NCBI RefSeq assembly: GCF_013167455.1
Contig: NZ_CP038328.1
DNA length: 64,000 nt
DNA from: Escherichia coli O157:H7
Lineage (GTDB): Bacteria; Pseudomonadota; Gammaproteobacteria; Enterobacterales; Enterobacteriaceae
Strand: one strand, 5' to 3'
The position numbers were made by a program, and so were the translations under genes. Below, in pieces: positions 52,926-63,636 of this stretch; positions within the stretch are counted from its first letter, which is position 1; the number at the start of each line of letters is the position of its first letter. The notes below the pieces were generated by a model. That model saw only the letters and a program-made list of their open reading frames with translations, ran no database searches and was not told the DNA's origin.

Positions 52926-54119
52926 TCAAATCTGTCGTAACTGCGTCTCAACATACAAATAGCCAATTCCCAGCACCTGTTGTGCGCGGCTTAATTGCCC
53001 GAAGCCAATTTGCGTCGCTTTCACGCTCGGTCCTTCGTCGCGGTCGAACGGGTTAAATCCTGTCTGGCGAATAATAGTATTAAGCCAGTGCTCACCAAAG
53101 GCACAACTGCGACCGTACAACCAAATCTGATTAATATTGAGGATGTTGAGGAAGTTATACAGACTCAAACCAATGGCATTGGCAGAGCGATCAACCCAGC
53201 TGGTGATCCACGGTTCTCCACTTTGCCAGGCAGCGATTAACTGCGCTGTAGTCAGTTTTTCAGGATCAAGCTGAGTATTAACCGGTTGTGATTTTAGCCA
53301 TACCCGCGCCTGTTTTTTTAATGCACTTAACGAGGCGACGGTTTCCAGGCAGCCGTAACGTCCACAGTCGCAGACGACGCCATCCGGATTAACGATGGTG
53401 TGACCAATCTGTCCGCTACCATACAAACTGCCGCGATAAATTTGCTCGTTAATCACGAACGACGAGCCAATGCCGTAATCAACGTTGATCACGCAGAAAT
53501 CCCGTTCCTGCGAATTATTTTGCCATTTTTCCGCCAGCGCCAGCATCACGCAGTCATTATCGACCATCACCCGAATGCCCAGCTTCTCTTCCAGCAGATA
53601 CTTCACCTCAACCGGCGTTGTCCACGGCGCTTGCGGCATGGTTTGCGACACTCCAGTCACTGGATCAACCTGACCGTGGATTGCCAGCGCCAGATTGATG
53701 GTGCGGTCCGGCCACAATTTACGGTGGCGATGCCAGCATTTTTCGATTTCGGACAGCAGCGCCTGCGGCGTCGGTGCATCAATCTGTAAATACTCAAATT
53801 CACCTTTCGGACTTAAACAAGCATTAGCAACCTGACACTCAATACTGGTGGGCGTCACGTTCAGACACAGCGTCCAGTCACCTTCCGGCGCAATCAGCCA
53901 TGTACCGCTACTATGCCCGCGCGTCTGGCTTTCATCGTCGATATTCACCACCCGTTTTTCGCTTTCCAGTTCCTGCAAAATATTACTGACTGCCGGAATC
54001 GAAATTTGCGCCAGCCGGGCCAGCGTTGATTTATTGGCGCGCTTTTGCCGGTACAGCAGTTCCAGAATCACGCATTTGTTATGGTGGCGAATCTGTTGAT
54101 TGTTAATGCAGGCTCTCAT
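52926..54119 (-). CDS. yphH: ROK-family (NagC/XylR-like) transcriptional regulator
   Basis: About 397 aa from ATG 54117..54119 (the frame opens 2 codons earlier at a GTG); N-terminal HTH, ROK sugar-kinase-like fold. Confidence 0.8.
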   Translation of the reverse strand: MRACINNQQIRHHNKCVILELLYRQKRANKSTLARLAQISIPAVSNILQELESEKRVVNIDDESQTRGHSSGTWLIAPEGDWTLCLNVTPTSIECQVANACLSPKGEFEYLQIDAPTPQALLSEIEKCWHRHRKLWPDRTINLALAIHGQVDPVTGVSQTMPQAPWTTPVEVKYLLEEKLGIRVMVDNDCVMLALAEKWQNNSQERDFCVINVDYGIGSSFVINEQIYRGSLYGSGQIGHTIVNPDGVVCDCGRYGCLETVASLSALKKQARVWLKSQPVNTQLDPEKLTTAQLIAAWQSGEPWITSWVDRSANAIGLSLYNFLNILNINQIWLYGRSCAFGEHWLNTIIRQTGFNPFDRDEGPSVKATQIGFGQLSRAQQVLGIGYLYVETQLRQI

Positions 54120-54236
54120 CTTCACTAAACCTTGTTTAGTTAATTGCGTGATTATTCCGCGAAAACATTGCCAGATTGTTCAATACACTGCCACAAATCT
54201 TTTAATTCAGTATGTCTTGTTAATATTGAGGGCACC

Positions 54237-57200
54237 ATGACTCCAGTAAAAGTGTGGCAAGAGCGCGTTGAGATCCCGACCTATGAAACCGGGCCGCAGG
54301 ATATACATCCCATGTTCCTGGAAAATCGCGTTTATCAGGGATCGTCCGGCGCGGTTTATCCCTACGGCGTGACCGATACGCTGAGCGAGCAGAAAACCCT
54401 GAAATCCTGGCAGGCGGTGTGGCTGGAAAACGACTACATCAAAGTGATGATCCTGCCGGAATTGGGCGGTCGGGTGCATCGCGCATGGGATAAAGTGAAA
54501 CAGCGCGATTTTGTCTATCACAATGAAGTCATTAAACCTGCGCTGGTGGGGCTGCTGGGACCGTGGATCTCCGGCGGGATTGAGTTTAACTGGCCGCAAC
54601 ACCATCGCCCGACCACCTTTATGCCCGTTGATTTCACCCTCGAAGCCCATGAAGACGGCGCACAGACGGTGTGGGTAGGCGAAACGGAGCCGATGCATGG
54701 TTTACAGGTGATGACAGGTTTCACCCTGCGCCCTGACCGGGCGGCGCTGGAAATCGCCAGCCGCGTCTATAACGGCAACGCCACGCCGCGTCATTTCTTG
54801 TGGTGGGCCAACCCGGCAGTGAAAGGGGGTGAAGGGCATCAGAGCGTCTTTCCGCCGGATGTAACGGCGGTGTTTGATCACGGCAAACGGGCCGTCTCCG
54901 CTTTCCCTATCGCCACCGGCACTTACTACAAAGTGGACTACTCCGCTGGAGTGGACATTTCTCGCTATAAAAATGTGCCCGTTCCAACCTCATATATGGC
55001 TGAAAAATCACAGTACGATTTTGTTGGCGCGTGGTGTCACGATGAAGATGGCGGTTTGCTACACGTTGCCAACCACCATATTGCGCCAGGTAAAAAGCAG
55101 TGGAGCTGGGGACACAGTGAATTTGGCCAGGCGTGGGATAAGAGCCTAACTGATAATAACGGCCCGTATATCGAACTGATGACCGGTATTTTTGCCGATA
55201 ACCAGCCTGATTTTACCCGGCTTGATGCTTACGAAGAGAAGCGTTTTGAGCAGTTTTTCCTGCCTTACCATTCTCTGGGCATGGTGCAAAACGCCTCCCG
55301 CGATGCGGTAATCAAACTCCAGCGTAGTGAGCGGGGGATTGAGTGGGGGCTGTATGCCATCTCTCCGTTGAACGGATACCGCCTGGCGATCCGCGAAATC
55401 GGCAAATGCGACGCGTTGCTCGATGATGCCGTGGCCCTGACACCAGCGACCGCCATCCAGGGCGTGTTACACGGTATCAATCCTGAAAGACTGACCATTG
55501 AGCTCTCTGATGCCGACGGCAATATTGTACTGAGTTATCAGGAACATCAGCCGCAAGAGTTGCCGTTGCCGGACGTCGCCAAAGCGCCACTGTCAGCACA
55601 AGACATTACCAGTACAGATGAAGCCTGGTTTATCGGTCAGCATCTGGAGCAATATCATCACGCCAGCCGTTCACCGTTCGATTACTACCTGCGCGGCGTG
55701 GCGCTGGATCCGCTGGATTACCGCTGTAATCTGGCGCTGGCGATGCTGGAGTATAACCGCGCAGATTTCCCGCAAGCGGTGGCGTATGCCACTCAGGCTC
55801 TGAAACGCGCACATGCGCTGAACAAAAATCCGCAGTGCGGACAGGCGAGTTTGATTCGCGCCAGTGCTTACGAACGTCAGGGACAATATCAACAAGCCGA
55901 AGAGGATTTCTGGCGTGCGGTCTGGAGCGGCAACAGTAAAGCCGGAGGCTATTATGGTCTGGCACGACTGGCGGCGCGTAATGGTAACTTCGACGCGGGT
56001 CTGGATTTTTGCCAACAAAGTCTTCGCGCCTGCCCAATCAATCAGGAAGTGCTTTGCCTGCATAATCTGCTGCTGGTGTTAAGTGGTCGTCAGGACAACG
56101 CGCGTTTGCAGCGCGAGAAACTGCTGCGCGATTATCCGCTGAACGCCACTCTGTGGTGCCTGAACTGGTTCGATGGTCGTAGCGAATCATCTCTCGCGCA
56201 GTGGCGCGGTCTGTGTCAGGGACGCGACGTTAACGCCCTGATGACCGCCGGGCAACTGATTAACTGGGGAATGCCCACCCTCGCGGCAGAGATGCTGAAT
56301 GCACTGGACTGCCAGCGCACGCTGCCGCTTTACCTGCAAGCCAGCTTGCTGCCGAAAGCCGAACGTGGCGAACTGGTCGCAAAAGCCATTGATGTCTTCC
56401 CGCAGTTTGTCCGTTTCCCGAATACGCTGGAAGAAGTGGCGGCGCTGGAGAGTATTGAAGAGTGCTGGTTTGCTCGCCATTTACTGGCCTGCTTCTACTA
56501 CAACAAACGTAGCTACAACGAAGCCATTGCCTTATGGCAACGTTGCGTAGAGATGTCGCCGGAGTTTGCCGACGGCTGGCGCGGGTTAGCGATCCATGCG
56601 TGGAATAAGCAACACGATTATGAGCTGGCCGCGCGTTATCTTGATAATGCTTATCAGCTTGCGCCGCAGGATGCACGTCTGCTTTTCGAACGGGATTTGC
56701 TTGATAAGCTAAGTGGAACCACACCGGAGAAACGACTGGCGCGTCTGGAAAATAATCTGGAAATTGCGCTGAAACGCGACGACATGACCGCAGAACTGCT
56801 CAATTTGTGGCATCTCACGGGGCAGGCAGACAAAGCGGCGGACATTCTCGCCACGCGCAAATTCCACCCGTGGGAAGGCGGGGAAGGGAAGGTCACCAGT
56901 CAGTTTATCCTCAACCAGTTATTACGCGCCTGGCAGCATCTTGATGCCAGAGAGCCGCAGCAGGCCAGCGAACTGCTTCATGCCGCGCTGCATTATCCGG
57001 AGAATTTAAGCGAAGGCCGTTTACCGGGGCAAACTGATAACGACATCTGGTTCTGGCAGGCGATATGCGCCAAAGCCCAGGGCGATGAAACTGAAGCGAC
57101 GCGCTGTTTACATCTGGCGGCGACCGGCGATCGCACCATTAACATCCACAGCTATTACAACGATCAGCCGGTTGATTACCTCTTCTGGCAAGGAATGGCG

Positions 57201-63177: not shown

Positions 63178-63208
63178 CCGGATAAGGCGTTCACGCCGCA
63201 TCCGGCAT
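63178..63208. repeat. REP (repetitive extragenic palindromic) element
   Basis: gccggataaggcgttcacgccgcatccggca between convergent yphB and yphA. Confidence 0.6.
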
Positions 63209-63213
63209 CTTTC

Positions 63214-63636
63214 CTAACGGCGATCGAGAGAAATTGCCCCCGGCCCGGTAATTGCCAATAGCAAGAACGCGCCAGCGATACTGACATTCTTCCAGAAATT
63301 AATCATATTTGGCCCGACGGCATCGCCGGTCATATCCCAGTAATGGTGACCAATCACCGCCGTACCCAGCGTGTAGAAAATAAACAGTACCGCCAGCGGA
63401 CGGGTGAAAAAGCCAAGCACGATTAATATCGCGGCGGGCACTTCCATAACTACCGCAATAATCGCTGCCAGCATCGGCATCGGTGCGCCCAGCGAGGCCA
63501 TATATTGGACCGTACCGTCAAAGCCCATCATTTTGGGAAAACCAAAAATAATGAAAATTAGGACCACGGCGATACGGGCAATTAATAACAAAACGGGGCG
63601 GGCAGCACCAAAATCAAAATAACGTAGTGAGTTCAT
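63214..63636 (-). CDS. yphA: DoxX-family inner membrane protein
   Basis: 140 aa from ATG 63634..63636 ([24 protein letters not shown]...); four hydrophobic segments. Confidence 0.8.

Follow-up and report, generated by a model that had tools for sequence, protein, structure and literature searches.

In nagE-nagBACD of E. coli, genes for sugar uptake and catabolism are controlled by the ROK repressor NagC (paralogue Mlc), which has an N-terminal HTH and the motif CxCGxxGCxE, from a divergent promoter with AT-rich palindromic sites at both ends. The yph locus would resemble this system in each of these respects, with a sub-threshold HTH match in YphH, candidate palindromic sites spaced by roughly 8 helical turns and a CRP-like half-site lying between the two; operator function and looping in yph are putative. 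The candidate yph operator, ACTAAAC-N3-GTTTAGT, differs however from the NagC/Mlc consensus. The E. coli CUT2 operons rbsDACBKR, alsRBACEK, xylFGHR and ytfQRT-yjfF share with yph a Peripla_BP_4 binder, a double ATPase and a BPD_transp_2 permease, as well as a linked repressor and an enzyme acting on the ring or anomeric form (RbsD pyranase, AlsE epimerase), but the yph operon contains neither kinase nor isomerase and has an additional 1093-aa DUF5107-TPR protein with no counterpart there.

Mutarotase genes are commonly encoded next to sugar transporters, and YphB shares equivalents of the His/His/Glu triad with GalM, encoded at the end of galETKM, and with the stand-alone aldose 1-epimerases 1L7J, 3MWX and 3NRE. 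YphG differs from the GalM family in having no significant sequence similarity to it and in being longer by approximately 750 residues, which form another beta domain and the TPR solenoid. Its architecture is shared by PDB 5CD6 (BDI_1685 of Parabacteroides distasonis, a structural-genomics 'TPR-domain containing protein'), although this protein is about half as long (575 aa), is 17-21% identical, and is itself without an assigned function. Another cryptic carbohydrate locus of E. coli, ycjM-W/ompG, encodes an ABC importer, the Zn-dehydrogenase YcjQ and sugar epimerases, and its substrate was reportedly found by the Raushel laboratory through in-vitro screening only. Like yph, it is a y-gene cluster in which an ABC importer is accompanied by an MDR-type sugar dehydrogenase and by enzymes of the epimerase type, but its transporter is of the CUT1 type, its other enzymes differ, its regulator is LacI-type and it has no DUF5107 protein; the parallel is one of research situation, not of pathway homology.

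Layout and conservation of the yph locus

The window is a stretch of 64,000 nucleotides from an E. coli O157:H7 genome, in which positions 52926-63636 are the E. coli yph locus. Many O157:H7 chromosomes match this region with 100% identity and have it annotated as yphH-yphA. Apart from yphC, every gene of the cluster is intact and colinear with K-12. Annotation, Pfam and translation bear out the gene list, the orientations and the amber stop in yphC given in the original prediction; its coordinates also hold, but yphA (DoxX), which lies inside them, went unmentioned. The prediction was also right to treat the cluster as known and not as a new system: YphH is described in the literature as an uncharacterised third ROK repressor, in a small clade of its own and with an atypical linker (PMC4288165), and none of the Yph proteins reaches an NCBIfam equivalog cut-off. 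The yph cluster is an already known locus carrying an ordinary pseudogene, a lineage-specific loss.

Within E. coli the locus belongs to the core genome, and strong purifying selection acts on it: it was found in 5425 of 5426 complete genomes, with coverage of at least 80% in 5370, and dN/dS between K-12 and O157 is 0.02-0.10 for all eight yph genes. These figures argue against the cluster being a cryptic relic that has no current function in E. coli, with the O157 stop as one of many neutral lesions. Conservation of the non-coding control region across genera points the same way, as does proteomic detection of YphF, which increases alongside other catabolite-controlled sugar binders (PMC8753852). 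A relic would fit a search of the open literature, in which no yph substrate, activity, transcript, phenotype or inducer was found, the very weak effects of a yphC deletion on growth on myo-inositol (PMC3423039), and the truncated YphG variants seen in some E. coli (P0002, P0028, P0041), yet taken together we consider it highly improbable.

Judged by gene spacing only, with intergenic gaps of 11-96 bp, yphGFEDCB is probably co-transcribed. A scan for promoters and terminators gave nothing above chance, and consensus terminators were not enriched. The remaining gene, yphA (63214-63636, minus strand), encodes a DoxX membrane protein (PF07681). It probably lies outside the unit, since it is transcribed convergently to the operon and a REP element (63176-63207, TGCCGGATAAGGCGTTCACGCCGCATCCGGCA) separates the 3' ends of yphB and yphA. 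Only 6 of 16 gammaproteobacterial loci, and none from other phyla, have this gene at 6 kb or less from the YphG gene, and in Klebsiella it is on the opposite side of the locus. The REP element, which gave a sub-threshold match to the REP-derived naRNA4 (39.5 bits) and a fold z of -3.1, is likely the 3' boundary of the yph operon.

Regulator, candidate operators and sugar importer

The regulator gene yphH (52926-54119, minus strand) is divergent from yphG and encodes a 397-aa ROK-family protein according to both RefSeq and PF00480 (E 9.7e-33, residues 115-341). The ROK zinc motif CxCGxxGCxE is present as CDCGRYGCLE at residues 250-259, and alignment to the Mlc model starts at residue 9; the MarR-type HTH match (E 3e-4, 21 bits) falls below the gathering score of 24.6. 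Assignment of YphH as a NagC or Mlc orthologue was rejected, as it scored 111.6 bits against an equivalog cut-off of 650 for NagC and 108.8 against 530 for Mlc.

Abutting the yphH start codon is a palindrome, TTCACTAAAC-CTT-GTTTAGTTAA (54121-54143), an inverted repeat with 10-nt arms that are 90% complementary. It is kept in 16 Enterobacterales and Aeromonas taxa and its strict pattern is unique within the window, making it a candidate YphH operator. The divergent promoter region also contains a conserved box, AATTGCGTGA-N-GCGAAA (54142-54165), in which TATTGCGTGA is at least 80% conserved over 16 taxa whose YphG proteins share 54-95% identity. A single half-site in this box is CRP-like (CGTGA), while the other half-site has no match; a CRP site here is putative. 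A second conserved box, TTCAGTATGTCTTGTTAATA (54206-54225), lies just 5' of the yphG ribosome-binding site, with the conserved columns TT.A.T.T...TT.TT.A in the 16-taxon alignment. Its centre is approximately 84 bp from that of the palindrome, and by analogy with NagC looping it may also serve as an operator.

Two further exact copies of TTCACTAAAC were found, at 57239-57248 on the minus strand and at 57511-57520 on the plus strand, the latter overlapping the yphG stop codon. All three exact copies in the 64 kb are within the yph locus, whereas chance would give approximately 0.12 copies of a random 10-mer, counting both strands. The motif is retained in E. albertii and an Enterobacter sp., and the 57511-57520 copy is a possible internal operator. 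The yphG-yphF gap also contains a GC-rich hairpin without a U-tract, TGAGCGGCA-CGCGC-TGCCGCTCA (57539-57561, plus strand), which is a perfect 9-bp inverted repeat with a fold z of -2.0; relatives have a hairpin of differing sequence at the equivalent place. It is possibly an attenuator or mRNA-stability element, and together with the repeated 10-mer ahead of yphF it could mark an internal unit.

The next three genes, all on the plus strand, have the domains of a CUT2 carbohydrate ABC importer: yphF (57615-58598) encodes a periplasmic sugar-binding protein with a signal peptide (Peripla_BP_4, E 2e-33), yphE (58621-60132) a fused double ATPase with two ABC_tran domains, and yphD (60157-61155) a BPD_transp_2 permease. 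The closest PDB relative of YphF is 5HSG (E 1e-24), whose PDB molecule name gives no sugar ligand, followed by binders of ribose, galactofuranose, galactose and allose. All scores fell far short of the equivalog cut-offs for the characterised ribose, allose, xylose, arabinose, galactose, galactofuranose, AI-2 or rhizopine families; for example, YphF scored 64 against 335 for AlsB, 59 against 420 for MglB and 44 against 510 for YtfQ, YphE is AraG-, XylG- and AlsA-like at 426-456 bits, under their cut-offs, and YphD is RbsC- and AraH-like, also under theirs. Further downstream, yphB (62294-63166, plus strand) encodes a member of the aldose 1-epimerase family (PF01263, E 8e-54) that is identical to PDB 3NRE (E 3e-207), and its motifs LHGD, WHPYF and CLEP align with His104, His175 and Glu309 of GalM, so that equivalents of all three are kept.

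The yphC stop codon and changes on the O157 branch

The gene between yphD and yphB, yphC (61188/61221-62282, plus strand), encodes a Zn-dependent MDR dehydrogenase (ADH_N and ADH_zinc_N) resembling polyol and keto-inositol dehydrogenases, and is a pseudogene in O157:H7. The K-12 allele has the features of an MDR enzyme, with C40, H70/E71, structural C100-C114 and GLGPVG at 182. An in-frame TAG at 61410-61412 replaces CAG at Gln64 (K-12 numbering; codon 75 from RefSeq's upstream ATG), 5' of the codons for His70/Glu71, the structural Zn site and the Rossmann fold. Translation might restart at GTG 61449, giving a product without C40, H70 and E71, and RefSeq already flags the gene as a pseudogene with the note 'internal stop'. 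The exact 35-mer spanning the TAG is present in 292 of 5426 complete genomes, all O157:H7-type, and the stop is therefore not a sequencing error. K-12 has CAG, and O55:H7, 493/89, LSU61 and PV15-279 share the haplotype but retain CAG, as does atypical O157; the null allele is limited to the typical O157:H7 clade.

That the dehydrogenase is disrupted had been noticed beforehand, but the damage is not confined to it. As the clade with the yphC amber also has a W328R substitution in YphG (codon 55218-55220), decay extends past the dehydrogenase. This position is aromatic in 45 of 45 homologues, and among the genomes Arg is found in 294 and Trp in at least 3147. A burst of changes on the O157 branch comprises 8 nonsynonymous and 5 synonymous substitutions, with all eight nonsynonymous ones derived on that branch, and YphG, YphE and YphD are all affected. 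The yph pathway in O157:H7 is at the least crippled; the yphC lesion, a possible polar effect on yphB, and W328R together point to a whole function in decay, not to the loss of one step.

YphG and its neighbourhoods across phyla

The 1093-aa product of yphG (54237-57518, plus strand) consists of a mutarotase-fold DUF5107 domain (residues 1-345), a small beta domain (357-435) and a TPR solenoid (460-1092), with Pfam matches to PF17128 (E 4.6e-56) and then TPR_16 (E 1.9e-16). It has no signal peptide and was assigned to the cytoplasm. The N-terminal domain has the galactose-mutarotase-like beta-supersandwich fold and is superposable on solved mutarotases, but by sequence it has no Pfam match to Aldose_epim, and hhalign gave probabilities of 0.1% and 3.7%. 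Its conserved polar residues include the nearly invariant H122, H123 and H215 (44 of 45 other homologues) and the invariant E313 and D325, and it has invariant motifs of its own (NWPQHHRP, PYIELM, NQPDFSW, FHPWEGGEG). E313, within PYIELM, aligns with the Glu of CLEP in a low-confidence hhalign alignment, and no second equivalent of a catalytic His is evident. The lack of significant sequence similarity to aldose epimerases makes any match between E313 and the catalytic Glu no more than suggestive. Homologues are full-length across three phyla and share approximately 40% identity across more than 1040 residues.

The neighbourhoods of 85 species-level YphG-homologue loci were compared (42 Bacteroidota, 16 Gammaproteobacteria and 27 Firmicutes), and Pfam censuses agree with the counts. 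An MFS sugar transporter is present in 36/42 Bacteroidota and 10/16 gammaproteobacterial loci, and most Firmicutes loci have no adjoining transporter. The regulator is of the ROK family in 16/16 gammaproteobacterial loci and of the AraC family in 20/42 Bacteroidota and 20/27 Firmicutes loci. An aldose epimerase is found in 14/16 gammaproteobacterial loci, and GH2, GH35 or GH92 glycosidases often adjoin the module. Aeromonas, Serratia, K. oxytoca and Limnobaculum have the order ROK / YphG - MFS - epimerase, and K. pasteurii has an ABC+ADH-type locus. The unit that recurs consists of a regulator, a sugar transporter and YphG. A YphC-like Zn-dehydrogenase occurs in 8 of the 85 neighbourhoods, and is missing from the K. 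oxytoca positional orthologue and from the Aeromonas, Serratia, Hafnia and Citrobacter loci. YphG is therefore likely the key component, and the original reading of import and oxidation or epimerisation, which is centred on the dehydrogenase, calls for revision.

A pathway in which YphC carries out the committed catabolic step after import, so that in O157:H7 the amber alone ends use of a sugar or polyol and YphG has a peripheral part, would fit the stop, which takes out all catalytic elements, and the likeness of YphC to the dehydrogenases named above. It would also fit the strong constraint on yphC outside O157 (dN/dS 0.021 between K-12 and O157, the most constrained yph gene) and its presence in 5/5 complete ABC-type loci (L009, L011, L012, L013, L015). 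We nevertheless find it doubtful, as 77 of the 85 neighbourhoods have no YphC-like gene, the invariant partner of the transporter is YphG, and the O157-branch changes also reach YphG, YphE and YphD. Presence in all complete ABC-type loci, together with the lowest dN/dS (0.02), does mean that yphC may be essential rather than accessory in E. coli.

YphG could itself be non-enzymatic, a sugar-sensing scaffold or regulator whose mutarotase-like domain binds ligand and whose TPR platform modulates the transporter or a transcription factor. The solenoid resembles the protein-binding superhelices of OGT, Ski3 and Ctr9, similarity to catalytic mutarotases is insignificant in sequence, and a regulator gene is always adjacent; the solenoid could thus have a scaffold or sensor role instead of one in catalysis. 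A specific protein partner is hard to reconcile, however, with a regulator family (ROK/AraC) and transporter class (MFS/ABC) that switch while YphG stays approximately 40% identical. The invariant His, Glu and Asp cluster within the mutarotase-fold domain and the Firmicutes loci that have no adjoining transporter also speak against this role, which we regard as improbable.

On balance, we slightly favour yphGFEDCB as a repressor-controlled catabolic operon for a monosaccharide-like carbohydrate, with YphG as its core and YphC as an accessory, decayed in O157:H7. The sugar would be imported by YphF, YphE and YphD, and YphG would then act on it at or near the anomeric centre, as an atypical mutarotase, a ring-form isomerase or a small-glycoside hydrolase. 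The hydrolase is disfavoured by the usual cargo of CUT2 and XylE-like transporters, namely free monosaccharides. YphB would equilibrate the product anomers for housekeeping kinases or isomerases, and YphC would be an accessory NAD(P)-dependent oxidoreductase confined to the module's ABC-type variant. YphH would repress through the conserved palindrome at the divergent promoter, with the sugar or a derivative as inducer, and may use the further TTCACTAAAC sites in a NagC-like manner.

The point of interest at the yph locus is the role of the widespread YphG family, rather than the yphC pseudogene. Tentatively, and at somewhat less than even chances, YphG may represent an enzyme family with a new activity that converts sugars at the anomeric centre, as the catalytic heart of a module of regulator, monosaccharide transporter and YphG, to which an aldose 1-epimerase may or may not be added. 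So read, this family of cytoplasmic proteins of about 1100 aa spans Gammaproteobacteria, Bacteroidota and Firmicutes, and the module is compact and horizontally shuffled. If this is true, the YphG conversion, whether isomerisation of ring form or anomer or hydrolysis of small glycosides, would tie glycan breakdown products to central metabolism, and O157:H7 would have dropped this capacity, through the yphC amber and W328R, while emerging from O55:H7.

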